Part shown: positions 1,879-49,583 of the stretch, piece by piece
Layout of the letters: every line of letters begins with the position of its first letter
Numbering within the stretch: the first letter of the stretch is position 1
DNA from: Gammaproteobacteria bacterium
Lineage (GTDB): Bacteria > Pseudomonadota > Gammaproteobacteria > JAKDMP01
Direction: 5' to 3'
Assembly: GCA_027018875.1 (NCBI GenBank)
Contig: JALUYA010000007.1
Location: forward strand, 23,607-87,606
DNA: 64,000 nt
Position numbers and translations under genes: made by a program
Notes under the pieces: generated by a model
The model's database searches: none
The model's input: the letters and a program-made list of their open reading frames with translations, nothing else
Told to the model about the DNA's origin: nothing

Positions 1879-4350
1879 TTATCCTCCACCATACAGACTG
1901 GGAGCCTGGTTGGATTGTTGCCGAGGGGGGACGTGATCGGTACGGAACACCTCCCATATGGCGTTGGGATTTCCGGGACCGCAGCGCAGTCCGGTCTTGG
2001 CATCGATCCGAACCGTTACCAGGCCGGGGGGAATGGGCCAGGTCCTGTTGGGCACCCCCTTCAGGGCATCACGCATGAAAGTAATCCACATGGGAAGAGC
2101 GGCTCGGGCTCCGGTTTGCCCATCGCCGAGTGTGGTGTTCCGATCATAGCCTACCCAGGTGATGGCAACCAGCCGGGGGGCGTATCCGTCGAACCAGGCG
2201 TTGGAGTAGTCATTGGTTGTTCCGGTTTTCCCCGCCAGATCACTGTGGCCGATAACCCGGGCGGCCCGGCCGGTTCCTTGCTGGATGACTCCTTGCATCA
2301 TATTGGTCATCAGGTAGGCGATTTGCGGACTGAGGGTCCTGGGTGCGAGACGGATTGGGAAAGCGGGTTGGCGCTGTGACAGGACGGCATGCCCGGTAGC
2401 CGCGGTTGGCGTGGTTCCAGCGGTCGTGGATACGGACGGTATTGCGATGGTTTGCGGTGCACCCAGAGTAGTTGCCGCAACCGGTGAGCCGAGGGTCATG
2501 GGAGCTCGTGCGGGGAGGGGCTTGGCGCAGGCAGTGCAGGCGACCCAGGGGTGCGCCCGAGCCAGCAATTGATCGTCCGGGCCTTCTATGCGCTGAATGA
2601 AATACGGGCGTACCAGAAACCCTCCATTGGCGAATACGGCATAGCCGCGGGCCATCTCTAGAGGAGTCAGGCTTGCGCTACCGAGAACCATGGTAAGGTT
2701 ATGCGGAATTTGCGCGGGGTCGAAGCCAAAGCGGCGCACCCAGCGAATAGCGGCGGGAATGCCTACTCGTTCCAGCACGCGCACCGAAACCAGGTTGATG
2801 GAATGAATCAATCCTTCGCGCAAGCGAACCATGCCCGAAGTGTTGCGTTCATAGTTGGTAGGCCGCCAATATTCGGCCAGCTGTTGGTTGGCCACCGCAA
2901 TCAGCGGGGCGTTGGAGATTAAGGTTGCCGGGGTCAGGCCCTGCTGCAGGGCCGCGGAATAGATGTAGGGCTTGAAGGAAGACCCCAGTTGGCGGTGGGC
3001 CTGCAGGGCACGGTTGAATTTACTCAAGGTATAGGAAAATCCCCCATCAAGCGCAACGATTGCGCCATCATAGGGATCAAGGGCAACTAGGGCTCCTTGA
3101 ACCGCGGGAATTTGGAAAATCTGCCAGCCGTCGGGCCGATGTTGGAGGTAAACCACATCTCCGGGCTTGAGGAAGCGGTTTGCCTGGGTCTTATCCCCCG
3201 CGGCCCAGCTCAGTGCCTTCCAACCCAGGGGGATATCGCCTGTGTTGGCCACGGCGACCGTGGCGGTCCGTGGCGCAACCCGGGTAATGATTCCGGGAAC
3301 AAGGTCGGCGACTTGCGGAAATGGTGCTAACTGGGCAGCCAATTCCTTGGGTGAATGGTTGTGGTCCAGGGGGATATTTGCTACTGGCCCGCGCCAGCCT
3401 CGTTCACGAGTGATCCGTTCCAGGTTGCGGACTAAAGCCAGGTGCGCCGCCTTTTCAAGACGCGAATCGATGGTAGTGGTGACCTGGAACCCAGCGGTAT
3501 AGACTGCATCACCATAGTGTTGAACCATATAATTTCGCACCATCTCGGCGACGTACGGAGCCTGAACACTGACCTGGGGAGCATGAAGACGGGCTGAAAT
3601 CGGTGCGGCCATGGCGCGTTTATAAGAACCGGTATCTATGAAACCCAGATCACGCATGCGCCCGAGCACATAGGCACGTCGCTCCAGGGCACGGCGTGGA
3701 TCGGCGATGGGGTTGAATATTGATGGTGCCTTGGGAAGCCCTGCAATCATGGCCATTTGGGCCAGGTCGAGCCGCCAGACATCCTTGCCGTAATATACTT
3801 CTGCCGCCGCCCCGACACCGTAGGCATGATTACCGAGATAGATCTTGTTCAGGTAAAGGCGCAGGATGTCTTCCTTGCTGAGTTCATTTTCAATACGTAA
3901 TGCCAGGAAAACTTCACGAATTTTGCGGATATAGAGCTTTTTTCGGGTTAGGAAAAAATTGCGTGCGAGCTGCATGGTTATCGTGCTGGCACCTTGGGAT
4001 TTGCGCCCCGTCAATATCAGGTTGATAACCGCCCTGGCCATGCTGCGGATGTCGAGTCCGGGGTGCTCGAAGAACCGGTCGTCCTCGGCGGCAATAAAGG
4101 CCTCGACTTGGAGCGGAGGAATCTGGGAGTAGTCCAGCGGGATCCGGCGTTTAGTACCGATTACGGATATTAGACGACCATCGCGCGTGTAAATGCGCAG
4201 GGGCACCTGCAGATGGATATCTTTCAGAATGCCTACCGAGGGTAGACTTGGGGCTACATACAGATAGATTCCGAGACCACCGCCGATCCCGCCCAGTCCT
4301 AACGCGGCCGCGCCGAGCAGCAGGTAGTGCATCATGCGGCGGCGCGTCAT
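1879..4350 (-). CDS. mrcA: Penicillin-binding protein 1A (bifunctional transglycosylase/transpeptidase)
   Basis: 823 aa. N-terminal TM segment, GT51 motifs (EDDRFFEHPG, RKSQGASTITMQLARN) and a transpeptidase SxxK/KTG region. Divergent from pilM as in Pseudomonas ponA. Confidence 0.95.
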   Translation of the reverse strand: MTRRRMMHYLLLGAAALGLGGIGGGLGIYLYVAPSLPSVGILKDIHLQVPLRIYTRDGRLISVIGTKRRIPLDYSQIPPLQVEAFIAAEDDRFFEHPGLDIRSMARAVINLILTGRKSQGASTITMQLARNFFLTRKKLYIRKIREVFLALRIENELSKEDILRLYLNKIYLGNHAYGVGAAAEVYYGKDVWRLDLAQMAMIAGLPKAPSIFNPIADPRRALERRAYVLGRMRDLGFIDTGSYKRAMAAPISARLHAPQVSVQAPYVAEMVRNYMVQHYGDAVYTAGFQVTTTIDSRLEKAAHLALVRNLERITRERGWRGPVANIPLDHNHSPKELAAQLAPFPQVADLVPGIITRVAPRTATVAVANTGDIPLGWKALSWAAGDKTQANRFLKPGDVVYLQHRPDGWQIFQIPAVQGALVALDPYDGAIVALDGGFSYTLSKFNRALQAHRQLGSSFKPYIYSAALQQGLTPATLISNAPLIAVANQQLAEYWRPTNYERNTSGMVRLREGLIHSINLVSVRVLERVGIPAAIRWVRRFGFDPAQIPHNLTMVLGSASLTPLEMARGYAVFANGGFLVRPYFIQRIEGPDDQLLARAHPWVACTACAKPLPARAPMTLGSPVAATTLGAPQTIAIPSVSTTAGTTPTAATGHAVLSQRQPAFPIRLAPRTLSPQIAYLMTNMMQGVIQQGTGRAARVIGHSDLAGKTGTTNDYSNAWFDGYAPRLVAITWVGYDRNTTLGDGQTGARAALPMWITFMRDALKGVPNRTWPIPPGLVTVRIDAKTGLRCGPGNPNAIWEVFRTDHVPPRQQSNQAPSLYGGG

Positions 4351-44516: not shown

Positions 44517-45227
44517 ATGGCGATCTGGGCAATTATCCCGGCGGCGGGCCGTGGCCAACGTTTGGGTGCCTTACGGCCTAAGCAATATCTTGCGGTGGCC
44601 GGCCGGGCCTTGATCCTACATGTGCTCGATTGTTTCCTTACCGAGCCCCGAATTTCGGGTATTGCCATCGCCTTGGCACCGGGAGATCGGGAATGGCCTG
44701 AGGTGGCGCCGGTTGAGCCCCGTAAGCCGGTGCTAATCGTGCCCGGAGGGAGGGATCGTTCGGATTCGGTTCTTTCCGCCTTAAACGCTTTGACCGGAAA
44801 ACTGGAAAAAGATGATTGGGTTATAGTGCACGATGCCGCCCGGCCTTGCTTGCGCCCCGAGGATCTCGGTCACCTCATCGATATGGTGAGCAACGATTCC
44901 GTCGGTGGGGTTTTGGCCGTTCCCGTCGTCGATACGCTAAAGCGTGCCGATAGCGGGGGACATATCACCGCGACGGTGCCGCGCAAGGAGTTATGGCGGG
45001 CGTTGACCCCGCAGATGTTTCGTTACGGTTTACTGCAAGCGGCTTTACTTGAATCCCGCTCGGCGGGGAGCCTGGTCACGGATGAGGCCATGGCGGTTGA
45101 ACGCGTGGGATATGTTCCCCGCCTGGTCGAAGGAAGTGCCGATAATATCAAGGTTACTCACGCGCAGGATCTGGTTCTTGCGGAGGCTATTCTTTTGCAT
45201 CGGCACGGTTCCTCCGCAAAACAATGA
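44517..45227 (+). CDS. ispD: 2-C-methyl-D-erythritol 4-phosphate cytidylyltransferase
   Basis: AIIPAAGRGQRLG N-terminal signature. 236 aa. Confidence 0.9.
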   Translation: MAIWAIIPAAGRGQRLGALRPKQYLAVAGRALILHVLDCFLTEPRISGIAIALAPGDREWPEVAPVEPRKPVLIVPGGRDRSDSVLSALNALTGKLEKDDWVIVHDAARPCLRPEDLGHLIDMVSNDSVGGVLAVPVVDTLKRADSGGHITATVPRKELWRALTPQMFRYGLLQAALLESRSAGSLVTDEAMAVERVGYVPRLVEGSADNIKVTHAQDLVLAEAILLHRHGSSAKQ

Positions 45228-45249
45228 TCTCTGGATGTATAATTAATTC

Positions 45250-45423
45250 ATGGCAGAGACATCCACAAAAAAAAATACGCTGCAACCGGCGCCCGGTGGC
45301 GAAAAAACAGGCACGAAAGATGTAGATCCCAAGGAAGCGCCGCGGGAAATTGGTGGGCCCAAAGGACCCGAACCTACGCGCTATGGTGATTGGGAACGCA
45401 ACGGGCGCTGCATCGATTTTTGA
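45250..45423 (+). CDS. Small DUF1674/SDHAF4-like protein (57 aa), not in the supplied ORF track
   Basis: Translation ends in [23 protein letters not shown], matching the conserved C-terminus of SDHAF4/DUF1674 proteins. Located 36 bp upstream of sdhC on the same strand. Confidence 0.6.
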
Positions 45424-45458
45424 ATTGGTCAATTCGCAGGGACTTAGGGGGTAATTTT

Positions 45459-45860
45459 ATGAATAACAGTCGATCCATGCCGCTTTCTCCGCATATCGCG
45501 ATCTACCGCTGGCCACTCTCGATGACGTTATCGATTCTGCACCGGATTTCCGGGGTGGTGCTTTATAGTGGCGCGCTGGGATTGGTCTATTGGCTGGTTG
45601 CATTGGCCGAGGGTCCAAATGCTTTTGCGACGGCGGGCTGGTTTTTCCACAGCTGGATCGGGCAGGTTTTCCTGTGTTTATGGAGCCTCGCATTTTTCTA
45701 TCATTTACTTACCGGGATCCGACATCTGGCCTGGGATTCCGGTTGGGGTTTTGAGCGTCGTGCTTATTACTTCAGCGGTTGGCTGGTGGTGCTGGGGACG
45801 GTCGGCCTCACCGCGGCAACCTGGATTTTTGGCTGGCTGATTGTGGGAGGTGTGCTATGA
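45459..45860 (+). CDS. sdhC: Succinate dehydrogenase cytochrome b556 subunit
   Basis: RPLSPHIAIYRWP, three TM helices. Start placed at MNNSRS. Confidence 0.85.
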   Translation: MNNSRSMPLSPHIAIYRWPLSMTLSILHRISGVVLYSGALGLVYWLVALAEGPNAFATAGWFFHSWIGQVFLCLWSLAFFYHLLTGIRHLAWDSGWGFERRAYYFSGWLVVLGTVGLTAATWIFGWLIVGGVL

Positions 45861-46237
45861 GTTTTCAAACCCCCCTTGGAGTTGCTCGCGGAAACGGTAC
45901 GGCACGCAGCGGCACCGGACATGGGCTTGTGCAGCATGCCATAGCATTGGCATTAATTCCGATCGGATTGGCCGCGGCCGTCCTATTTTTCTGGATGATA
46001 CAAGTCGGTTATGCCGGGGCAGTCTCTTTGCTGCGCCAACCCTGGGTGTTGTTGTTTGTGGTTTTGCTGGTTGCTCTGCCTTTTTGGCACGGGTATCTCG
46101 GGATCAAGGTGATCATAGAGGATTACGTTAGTAACAAACGCTTGGCGTATACGGCGATTACGCTGATACGCTTTCTCAGCGTTGCCGTGGCGTTGCTGGG
46201 GATCATTGCGGCGGCGAAGATCGGATTTGGAGGTTGA
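45857..46237 (+). CDS. sdhD: Succinate dehydrogenase hydrophobic membrane anchor subunit
   Basis: Three TM helices. Position between sdhC and sdhA. ATGA overlap with the sdhC stop. Confidence 0.8.
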
Positions 46238-48027
46238 TGGCAATGCATGGCGATTACAAAATTATTGATCATATTTACGATGTTGTTGTGGTTGGTGCCG
46301 GGGGGTCCGGTCTGCGGGCGACGCTTGGTTTGGCTGAGGCGGGTTTGAAGACCGCCTGCGTGACCAAGGTTTTCCCGACGCGCAGCCACACCGTGGCCGC
46401 TCAGGGTGGCATTGCGGCTTCTCTCGGCAATATGGGGGAGGACCATTGGTCCTGGCATATGTACGATACCATCAAGGGATCGGACTGGCTGGGGGACCAG
46501 GATGCGATTGAATTTCTGTGCCGCAAGGCCCCCGATGCGGTCATCGAACTCGATCACTACGGCGTGCCCTTTTCCCGGACCGAAGAGGGGAAGATTTATC
46601 AGCGTCCTTTCGGCGGTATGACAACGCATTTCGGCGAAGGGACGGCGGAACGATCCTGCGCGGCGGCGGATCGCACGGGCCATGCCATGTTGCATGCGCT
46701 CTACCAACAGGCGCTAAAGCATCGGGCGGAGTTCTTTATCGAGTGTTTTGCGATCGATCTCATCATGGAAGGGGATACCTGTCGCGGCTTGTTGGCCTGG
46801 GATTTGATGAGCGGGGAGTTACACCGGTTTTCCGCCCAGATGGTGATCTTGGCAACCGGCGGCTATGGCCGGACTTATTTCTCTTGTACCTCCGCTCATA
46901 CCTGCACCGGCGACGGTAACGGGATGGTATTGCGGGCCGGGTTGCCGTTACAGGACGTGGAATTCGTCCAGTTTCACCCCACGGGGATCTATGGTGCCGG
47001 CTGCCTCATCACCGAGGGTTGTCGTGGCGAGGGTGGTTATCTGACCAACAGTGAAGGCGAGCGGTTTATGGAGCGCTATGCTCCACACGCAAAGGATCTG
47101 GCTTCCCGGGATGTCGTCTCCCGTGCTATGACCATCGAAATACGTGAAGGTAGGGGGGTAGGTGAGCACAAGGATCATCTTTTTCTGCATATTGAGCATC
47201 TCGGGGCTGATCTATTGCACGAGCGCTTACCTGGTATCACGGAGACCACACGAGTTTTTACCGGAGTCGATGCGACCAAGGATCCGATCCCCGTGCTGCC
47301 GACGGCCCATTATTGCATGGGGGGAATACCTACCAATTATCATGGCGAGGCGGTTACCTTGCGAGACGGGAATCCCGACAGCGTGGTGCCCGGTCTGATG
47401 GCGGTCGGTGAAACCGCCTGCGTTTCGGTGCATGGTGCAAACCGCCTGGGTACAAACTCACTGATTGATTTGGTTGTATTCGGTCGGGCTGCGGCCGAAC
47501 GCTGCAACGAGGTCGTCAAGCCGGGTGCAACCGCTGCATTACCCGCAAAGGCCGGTGATGCCGCGCTCGACCGGTTCGATCGCCTGCGCTTTTCCAAGGG
47601 CTCGGTACCGACAGCGCAAATCCGGGATCAGATGCAACGCACGATGCAGTCCCATGCCTCGGTTTTTCGCGATGGTGCCACGCTGGAAGAGGGCAAGCAG
47701 AAGTTGGCGGAGATTGCCGCACAACTGAAAGATGTCAGTGTTTCTGATCGTTCATTGGTCTGGAACTCGGATCTTGCCGAGACTTTGGAGCTGGCCAACT
47801 TGCTGGCACAGGCCACGGTCGTTCTCCATGCCGCTGCCAATCGTACCGAAAGTCGAGGTGCGCATGCCCGCGAAGACTACAAGGAACGTGATGATAAGAA
47901 CTGGATGAAGCATACGCTTATCTGGGGCAGTTCACATGAGAATATTCGTATTGACTATCGCCCGGTACACGACTATACGTTGACCAACGAGATTAAACCT
48001 TTTCCGCCTAAGAAGCGGGTTTATTGA
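46234..48027 (+). CDS. sdhA: Succinate dehydrogenase flavoprotein subunit
   Basis: [15 protein letters not shown]-binding motif, [10 protein letters not shown]. 597 aa. Confidence 0.95.
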
Positions 48028-48039
48028 GGATTTTCAACC

Positions 48040-48828
48040 ATGGTGCAATTGCGACTTCCACAGAATTCCCGTCCGCTGAAAGGTAAAACCTATAGGGTTA
48101 AGAACGCGACTCATATCAAGCGGTTCCGGATTTATCGCTATGACCCGGATACGGACGATAATCCACGCGTGGATACTTACGAAGTGGACCGGGATCATTG
48201 TGGACCAAGGGTATTAGATGCCCTGATCAAGATAAAGAATGAGATTGATCCCACGTTAACTTTCCGTCGGAGTTGCCGTGAAGGCGTATGTGGGTCTTGT
48301 GCGATGAACATCGGCAATGGCGCGGGGGGTACCAATACACTGGCTTGCACGACGGGCTGGGAAGATATCAAGGGGGATGTACGCATTTACCCCTTGCCTC
48401 ACATGCCGGTCGTGAAGGATCTGGTGCCTGATCTGACCCATTTTTATGCCCAGTATGCCTCCATAGAACCCTGGATCAAAACTTCTTCACCGCTGCCTAG
48501 CCGTGAGCGTAAACAGTCACCGGAAGAGCGAGCCAGACTCGATGGCCTTTGGGAGTGCGTACTCTGCGCCAGTTGTTCCACCAGTTGTCCGAGTTACTGG
48601 TGGAACAGCGATCGTTATCTTGGGCCCGCCGTACTGCTACAGGCTTATCGTTGGATTTCCGACAGTCGGGATGAGGCAACAGGTGAACGGCTGGATGCTT
48701 TGGAGGATCCGTTTAAGCTCTATCGTTGCCATACGATTTTGAATTGCACCAATACTTGTCCCAAGGAGCTTAATCCGGCTAAGGCCATTAGCGAGATCAA
48801 GCGATTAATCGCCAAGCGTGAGCTGTAA
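48040..48828 (+). CDS. sdhB: Succinate dehydrogenase iron-sulfur subunit
   Basis: [13 protein letters not shown] and CxxCxxCxxxCP cluster motifs. Confidence 0.95.
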
Positions 48829-48847: not shown

Positions 48848-49123
48848 TTGATCCCCAGTGTGAGCGAACCGTCTCCTCAAGGCGATCCAGCGGTTGAGCG
48901 CGCGCGGTTGCGTTGGCAGTGCCGGCGTGGGCTGCGTGAACTCGATATACTGTTGAAATCGTACCTGGATACGCGTTATCCATCGGCGTCGGACGACGAG
49001 CGCAAGGCATTTGCCGATTTGCTCCAATGCACCGACTACGAGCTGATGGACTGGATATTGGGGCATGCAAATCCTCCCGATGAGTTGGTGGATGTTGTTC
49101 GAGCGATTACCCCCTCTTATTGA
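48848..49123 (+). CDS. sdhE: FAD assembly factor SdhE (YgfY/CptB family)
   Basis: RLRWQCRRGLRELDILL signature. 91 aa. Confidence 0.8.
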   Translation: MIPSVSEPSPQGDPAVERARLRWQCRRGLRELDILLKSYLDTRYPSASDDERKAFADLLQCTDYELMDWILGHANPPDELVDVVRAITPSY

Positions 49124-49145
49124 CTTGGCGTTGCGTCCGTCCCGG

Positions 49146-49583
49146 ATGCTGACGGGGTTATTAGCCGGTTTTTATGGGGCTGCAATCATTGCTGCTTTAG
49201 CCAATGGGTTGCCCTTGATCGTCCGTGTATTGTTGGCCCTGGTTTTAGGGGGGGTGGGCGGATTCTGGATCTTGTCTCATGCGGTTCGTTATTCCTCATC
49301 TTCGGTGGAGCGATTCGTGTGGCATCCCGAGGGAGAGTGTGTGCTGATTGATCGCCGGGGCCGAACCTTCAGCGGGCGGATCGAGCCGGGAGCCTGGGTC
49401 AGCCCCGGACTCGTGGTATTACAGATTCGGGGTTCTACCTGGAGGCGGCGGGCTCTCGTAGTGGCTTACGATGCAGTGGATCCGACTGCATTCAGGCGGT
49501 TACGCATGCGTCTGCGGATCTCTCCGCCTTCGTCTTCCGGCATGGTAAGAAAACTGCTCCATAGGTTGCCTAAACACCGATGA
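49146..49583 (+). CDS. YgfX/CptA-like inner-membrane protein (partner of SdhE). Start uncertain: the listed ORF begins at 49065 inside sdhE, and candidates are TTG 49125 or ATG 49146.
   Basis: Two N-terminal TM helices then a cytoplasmic domain. Conserved sdhE-ygfX gene order as in E. coli. Confidence 0.5.
   Translation: MLTGLLAGFYGAAIIAALANGLPLIVRVLLALVLGGVGGFWILSHAVRYSSSSVERFVWHPEGECVLIDRRGRTFSGRIEPGAWVSPGLVVLQIRGSTWRRRALVVAYDAVDPTAFRRLRMRLRISPPSSSGMVRKLLHRLPKHR

Follow-up and report, generated by a model that had tools for sequence, protein, structure and literature searches.

The window, i.e., the whole 64-kb stretch of DNA analysed here, carries between ispD and sdhC a short gene (positions 45250–45423, + strand) that codes for a 57-residue protein of the DUF1674/SDHAF4 family. 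The reading frame is a genuine protein-coding gene under strong purifying selection, and the gene order (ygfZ<>)DUF1674-sdhCDAB-sdhE(-ygfX), in which <> denotes divergent transcription, is kept across many gammaproteobacterial orders. By analogy with human SDHAF4, the product is probably a bacterial SDHAF4-type assembly factor of the flavoprotein SdhA, co-transcribed with sdhCDAB-sdhE-ygfX. Neither the family nor its occurrence in bacteria is new, and the gene in the window is an ordinary member that public pipelines call; the conserved gammaproteobacterial gene order appears not to have been described previously, as far as the searchable literature shows.

SDHAF4 is important for the assembly of human complex II; mice that lose it develop cardiomyopathy, and flies undergo neurodegeneration. 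What exactly it does is still called cryptic, and the conserved gene order described below offers cultivable bacterial models for this assembly factor.

The DUF1674 gene and its neighbours

The gene extends from an ATG at 45250 to a TGA ending at 45423 and comprises 57 codons plus the stop codon; translation of this segment of the + strand is identical to the product quoted in the initial annotation. An in-frame TAA (45244–45246) directly 5' of the ATG makes the start unambiguous, since a longer version of the protein is impossible. The frame had been missed in the underlying ORF track because of its length, as was suspected at the time: it is listed once the minimum is set to 40 aa, and the default of 60 aa had hidden it. 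The accompanying description of the gene as unannotated holds for that track only. In public data (ENA, JGI, and NCBI assemblies) the identical protein has been gene-called with PF07896 attached, occurring for example in a 98-kb ENA metagenome contig and in a JGI contig. A word-indexed search yielded 5684 homologues (E ≤ 1e-3), a large number of which are named "DUF1674 domain-containing protein" and come from MAGs of Gamma- and Alphaproteobacteria.

On the same strand, the gene is preceded by pyrG, kdsA, ftsB and ispD and followed by sdhC, sdhD, sdhA, sdhB, sdhE and a ygfX/CptA-like gene. The spacer towards ispD (44517–45227; Pfam IspD, E = 5e-67; TIGR00453; public gene call) is 22 nt long (45228–45249), and that towards sdhC is 35 nt long (45424–45458), which becomes 36 nt if the count goes from the final stop-codon base to the A of the sdhC ATG at 45459; the distance of 36 bp reported earlier is reproduced by the latter count. 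A promoter/terminator scan detected no terminator-like hairpin in either spacer and no promoter at the ispD/DUF1674/sdhC junctions. The 35-nt spacer contains a Shine-Dalgarno-like AGGGGG (45446–45451), and inspection of the sequence before the DUF1674 ATG revealed no obvious Shine-Dalgarno motif. There is no break in GC content across the locus, and a search of the whole 64-kb window against Rfam at gathering thresholds yielded no match, i.e., no tRNA, rRNA or riboswitch, so that the junction harbours neither a known riboswitch nor a known sRNA. With its shared strand, its short spacers, the lack of a terminator between the genes and the conserved adjacency, the DUF1674 gene has the hallmarks of an operon member.

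A perfect TATAAT (45238–45243) is located 6 nt 5' of the ATG. A leaderless transcript with its 5' end at the A of the ATG would be expected to have this spacing. Such a DUF1674 transcript could arise from the hexamer; we place no weight on this possibility, given the poor or missing match in the -35 region and the absence of the hexamer from the closest relative, locus L026.

The position of the gene between ispD and sdhC on one strand, with sdhE and ygfX at the other end of the operon, was found as originally stated. All structural genes of succinate dehydrogenase are present on the + strand: sdhC for the cytochrome b556 subunit (45459–45860; TIGR02970, 121 bits), sdhD for the membrane anchor (45857–46237; TIGR02968, 55.7 bits; public gene call), sdhA for the flavoprotein and presumed binding partner of the DUF1674 protein (46243–48027; TIGR01816, 943 bits), and sdhB for the iron-sulfur subunit (48040–48828; NF004616, 364 bits). 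They are followed by sdhE (48848–49123), coding for the SDHAF2 homologue and flavinylation factor (Pfam Sdh5, E = 2.2e-22; NF008130, 66.9 bits, which is below the 120-bit cut-off), and by the gene of a YgfX/CptA-like membrane protein (49065–49583; Pfam Cpta_toxin, E = 7.9e-11), which overlaps the end of sdhE. Taken at their longest, the reading frames of sdhE and ygfX share 59 nt (49065–49123), as compared to an overlap of 20 nt in E. coli, and the true start of ygfX in the window may be located further downstream. In the public gene calls for the identical contigs L001 and L002, sdhE is missing and an antisense ORF of 96 aa without a Pfam match (9471–9761 of L001, - strand) is called instead; the gene of the sdh operon that public annotation has actually overlooked is sdhE, not the DUF1674 gene.

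The remark in the initial annotation that the gene occupies the place where ispF would normally follow ispD is valid relative to the E. coli order ftsB-ispD-ispF, in a positional sense. Searching with E. coli IspF did not identify an ispF gene in the 64-kb window or in the related loci, though ftsB-ispD is present, and the notion that the DUF1674 gene "replaces ispF" was dismissed as purely positional.

Similarity to SDHAF4 and proposed role in SdhA maturation

Comparison with the DUF1674 profile, which had been suggested as a check on the family assignment, gave a score of 63.2 bits (E = 2.9e-17) for PF07896, as against a gathering score of 23.5 bits, with residues 22–57 of the protein aligned to profile positions 17–50 of 50. 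NCBIfam contains no model for the DUF1674/SDHAF4 family. When the 57-aa protein was used to search the sequences of the PDB, only entries 8dyd, 8dye and 2k5k matched. The match to human SDHAF4 (8dyd_C, E = 2.2e-11) aligns residues 24–57 with chain residues 67–98, and the C-terminal block that the initial annotation had taken for the hallmark of SDHAF4/DUF1674 is indeed near-identical to that of the human protein, the segment G35–F57 deviating from it just at K38/R and N51/K. Based on the 8dyd_C alignment and the invariant columns of an alignment of 25 homologues, the conserved block comprises 27 residues (aa 31–57; positions 45340–45420) and matches the portion of human SDHAF4 that acquires order upon binding to SDHA. 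The N-terminal half (45250–45339) is variable, rich in Lys, Thr, Pro, Gly and Glu, devoid of conserved columns in the 25-homologue alignment, and predicted to be disordered. An AF2 model based on the same alignment showed no stable fold (pLDDT 55, pTM 0.15; pLDDT 45–53 over residues 1–30), which agrees with a protein that folds upon meeting its partner, although a model of low confidence is not a measurement of disorder.

Residues E33, E41, D56 and F57 are invariant among the 25 homologues. Since the alignment with 8dyd_C is gapless over the C-terminal region, they correspond to E84, E92, D107 and F108 of human SDHAF4. The human protein is disordered on its own, and its last 34 residues order onto SDHA, with E84 and E92 touching SDHA R171 as the initial contact and D107 and F108 plugging the dicarboxylate site, where they touch H407 and R451; mutating E84, E92, D107 and F108 blocks SDHA binding or SDHAF2 displacement (Sharma et al. 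2024, PMC10784507). The terminal Asp-Phe mimics a dicarboxylate, occludes the active site, and is strictly conserved in the homologues (PMC10784507). The protein encoded in the window ends with CIDF followed by TGA, i.e., with Asp-Phe-COOH, and a DF-stop ending is present in 79 of 80 related loci.

Human SDHAF4, yeast Sdh8 and Drosophila Sirup (PF07896; 8DYD, 8DYE) share with the window protein the near-identical C-terminal stretch of about 27 residues, described by GGP[KR], 11 further residues and [RK]xGRCIDF-COOH. Human SDHAF4 also resembles it in the equivalents of E84, E92, D107 and F108, the variable N-terminal part, and the association with SDH and an SDHAF2 homologue. However, the window protein has no mitochondrial targeting sequence, it comprises 57 aa instead of 108 aa, its function is putative, and its gene is part of the sdh operon, whereas the human gene is separate and nuclear; moreover, the bacterial SdhE-SdhA complex is reported to be much weaker than that of human SDHA and SDHAF2. 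The alphaproteobacterial family member RhR2 of Rhodobacter sphaeroides (PDB 2K5K) matched with E = 2.3e-8, both proteins having the ending KEIGG.xGPEP.R[YF]GDWE..G..IDF; RhR2 differs by an Ala at the position of the Cys in GRC that is shared by the window protein and human SDHAF4.

The presumed partner SdhA of the window contains the FAD-linking His49 (in RSHT), Arg121 (in YQRPFGG), and the active-site His and Arg residues. We take R121 to be the counterpart of human R171, based on the human sequence and the 50-residue offset of the 664-residue chain 8gs8_A. As the contact residues are universal in SdhA/FrdA proteins and catalytic, their presence does not separate the hypotheses on the function of the DUF1674 protein. 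SdhA of the window scores 797–857 bits against mitochondrial SDHA proteins and 663 bits against SdhA of E. coli; as judged from these similarity scores, which lend support to it, the SDH system would be of a mitochondrial-like type, and the occurrence of DUF1674 may track the mitochondrial-like SdhA clade.

In the mechanism that we propose, the DUF1674 gene would be transcribed together with sdhCDAB-sdhE-ygfX, and in this lineage probably also with ftsB-ispD. The 57-aa protein on its own would be disordered, by homology with human SDHAF4. SdhE would first promote the covalent linkage between FAD and SdhA, and the conserved C-terminal residues (about 27) of the DUF1674 protein would then dock on flavinylated SdhA, with E33 and E41 beginning the contact at the Arg residue corresponding to SdhA R121, and with Asp56-Phe57-COOH entering the dicarboxylate site as a substrate mimic. 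The inserted Asp-Phe would shield the flavin, help SdhE to leave, and keep SdhA competent for docking on SdhB and SdhCD, to which SdhA would thus be passed on. Binding to SdhA, displacement of SdhE and an effect on SDH activity are what we infer for the 57-aa protein by analogy with its human counterpart. Bacterial SdhA-SdhE complexes are reported to come apart easily (PMC10238741), so the SdhE-displacing step of the human mechanism may be unnecessary.

SdhE/SDHAF2/Sdh5 (PF03937) is another small protein dedicated to SdhA assembly; its gene belongs to the same operon, and it too is conserved from bacteria to mitochondria. The two proteins are unrelated in fold and sequence, and unlike the DUF1674 protein, SdhE, which promotes covalent flavinylation, has been characterised in bacteria; the DUF1674 protein, by analogy, would act after flavinylation.

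As the main alternative, a member of the same family might bind in the same way but have another job, serving as a reversible cap or inhibitor of the active site or as a shield against ROS, on free or assembled SdhA, or else as a small stoichiometric accessory subunit, instead of transiently displacing SdhE. We consider this unlikely. The occlusion of the active site by the terminal Asp-Phe as a dicarboxylate mimic (PMC10784507) and the reported weakness of bacterial SdhE complexes (PMC10238741) would agree with it, and so would the location of the gene as first cistron of a structural operon, which suggests expression near the level of a subunit. However, the conservation of E33, E41, D56 and F57 fits both models and separates neither, and no solved bacterial complex II was found among the PDB matches, which comprise 8dyd, 8dye and 2k5k. 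For the assembly factor that we favour, further support comes from the genomic context in other bacteria.

Gene order in Gamma- and Alphaproteobacteria

The proteins encoded in the window were compared by tblastn with 80 related loci from one-genome-per-species GTDB contigs (at least 593 of the 600 stretches listed encode a relative), taxonomic groups being assigned from the record titles. In all 40 gamma-labelled or gamma-type loci, the DUF1674 gene is directly followed, in the same orientation, by sdhC-sdhD-sdhA-sdhB and usually then by sdhE; the gap between the DUF1674 gene and the sdh genes has a median of about 79 nt. Another 32 loci, all of alpha type, extend for 1.5 kb or more downstream and have no sdh gene there, and the remaining 8 of the 80 loci were too short downstream for a linkage call. 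The split into linked and unlinked loci matches taxonomy, as given by the record titles, exactly. The linked set includes Xanthomonadales (Lysobacter, Pseudoxanthomonas, Tahibacter, Montanilutibacter) as well as Alkalilimnicola/Ectothiorhodospiraceae, Spiribacter, Competibacteraceae, Steroidobacteraceae, Nevskiales, Salinisphaerales, Granulosicoccaceae and Chromatiaceae, and in addition a few MAG contigs with other or unspecific labels (Phycisphaerae, Klebsiella, Enterobacteriaceae, Pseudomonadota, and "proteobacterium"). The unlinked set consists of Alphaproteobacteria, among them Stellaceae, Acetobacteraceae, Acidiphilium, Acidocella and Rhodospirillales. The absence of sdh genes beside the gene in the 32 alpha-type loci (the class of RhR2, the locus of RhR2 itself not being among them) means that linkage to sdh is not universal. 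The alpha-type gene is often found near htpX, coding for an M48 protease, and rsmB, as in L014 (2811–3761, - strand) and L004 (2452–3786, - strand).

Proteobacterial-type DUF1674 loci were also present on short contigs (L026, L030, L067 and L068) from MAGs labelled Phycisphaerae, Klebsiella pneumoniae, Paceibacterota and Enterobacteriaceae. The sdh genes are directly downstream in L026, L030 and L068, and L067 is too short downstream for a call. The four contigs are probably mis-binned.

A divergently transcribed ygfZ gene is located just upstream of the DUF1674 gene in 28 of the 40 linked loci (e.g., L013, 1765–2694, - strand), making the DUF1674 gene the promoter-proximal first cistron of the sdh operon in these loci. 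The product of the upstream gene scores 86 bits against TIGR03317 (cut-off 49) and shares 30% sequence identity with YgfZ of E. coli. YgfZ is a folate-binding protein. It acts in Fe-S maturation and in E. coli supports succinate dehydrogenase (PMC3245475). The window departs from this arrangement together with its nearest relative, L026, both having ftsB-ispD upstream in the place of ygfZ; no ygfZ was found within the 64-kb window.

Co-expression with sdh and an assembly role, both of which had been put forward in the initial annotation, are what we infer from this gene order. The constant location of the gene at the start of the sdh operon in Gammaproteobacteria supports an assembly role shared with SDHAF4, and the position as first cistron, often beside ygfZ, provides strong guilt-by-association for an ancient role in SdhA maturation that would predate mitochondria.

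In E. coli K-12, ygfZ is divergent from sdhE-ygfX (L083, 6417–8294), which is the same frame minus DUF1674-sdhCDAB; the DUF1674 family is missing from E. coli. This suggests that the ygfZ/DUF1674-sdhCDAB-sdhE arrangement is an ancestral SDH-biogenesis locus and that the ygfZ<>sdhE-ygfX locus of E. coli is a remnant of it. The fuller reading, that the gammaproteobacterial DUF1674 protein is a working SDHAF4 encoded by the first cistron of an ancestral ygfZ<>sdhAF4-sdhCDAB-sdhE-ygfX locus and that the E. coli locus was left over after loss of DUF1674-sdhCDAB, is one we hold with slightly more doubt than confidence. If true, such a locus would combine flavoprotein chaperones (AF4 and SdhE), structural genes, and an Fe-S maturation factor (YgfZ), and cultivable Xanthomonadales or Ectothiorhodospiraceae would be the first genetically tractable bacterial SDHAF4 system. 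It would also answer the question, raised in 2018, whether bacteria free SdhE through an SDHAF4-like factor. At that time, no bacterial SDHAF4 homologue was known, according to the field (PMC5773532); reviews published in 2023–24 already mention putative alpha- and gammaproteobacterial homologues (PMC10238741, PMC10784507). The published SDHAF4 alignment includes R. sphaeroides as its only bacterial sequence. The literature searched contained no description of the linkage of the DUF1674 gene with the sdh operon and no genetic, proteomic or transcript data on any bacterial DUF1674/SDHAF4 member.

Selection on the coding sequence

The DUF1674 reading frame is intact in all of the 80 related loci. 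Conservation in orthologous intergenic regions, another check named at the outset, is evident from its retention 5' of sdhC in L026, which is the sole further lineage that has an ispD-sdhC junction, as well as in 39 more gamma-type loci. Nucleotide diversity in the last 27 codons amounts to 0.12 for first, 0.13 for second and 0.52 for third codon positions, and in the 13 codons with an unchanging amino acid to 0.002, 0.000 and 0.475, respectively. The excess of third-position variation is the pattern to be expected of a coding sequence, a point on which the initial annotation had staked its proposal, and it is accompanied by a median NG86 dN/dS of 0.05 versus the window (pairs with unsaturated dS). 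The closest relative, L026, differs from the window by 15 synonymous and three nonsynonymous codons. In shifted frames, stop codons pile up, and residue conservation is 0.55–0.61 versus 0.88 in the true frame. Taken together, codon diversity, dN/dS and the frame data rule out a chance ORF, an antisense ORF, and a leader peptide that is indifferent to its sequence.

A short ORF directly 5' of sdhC, with a spacer of 35 nt, might in principle be a cis-acting leader peptide or uORF, the translation of which, and not its product, regulates sdh. This is very improbable: the amino acids are conserved from bacteria to human, with a dN/dS of about 0.05, homologues in Alphaproteobacteria and eukaryotes are unlinked to sdh, and there is neither an Rfam element nor an attenuator-like terminator. 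The idea that the frame arose by chance or that the 81-aa antisense ORF spanning the region (45187–45432, - strand), which exceeds the threshold of 60 aa, is the real gene has a negligible probability and was rejected, since the Pfam and PDB matches are on the + frame, public gene callers pick the + ORF, and the shifted frames perform poorly.

The part of the gene coding for the predicted disordered N-terminal region contains an A9 run (45267–45275) and an A6 run (45302–45307) within its KKN and EKT codons; such homopolymers are susceptible to slippage as well as to indels in sequencing. The sole related locus without a DF-stop ending is L040 of Alkalilimnicola ehrlichii AK92 (4069–4089), where GAT TTT AGG CGT TAA (DFRR*) is one T short of GAT TTT TAG. 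This ending is either due to an assembly indel in the T-run or a natural extension by two residues; a natural extension, if true, would bury the C-terminal carboxylate that is used in the human mechanism.
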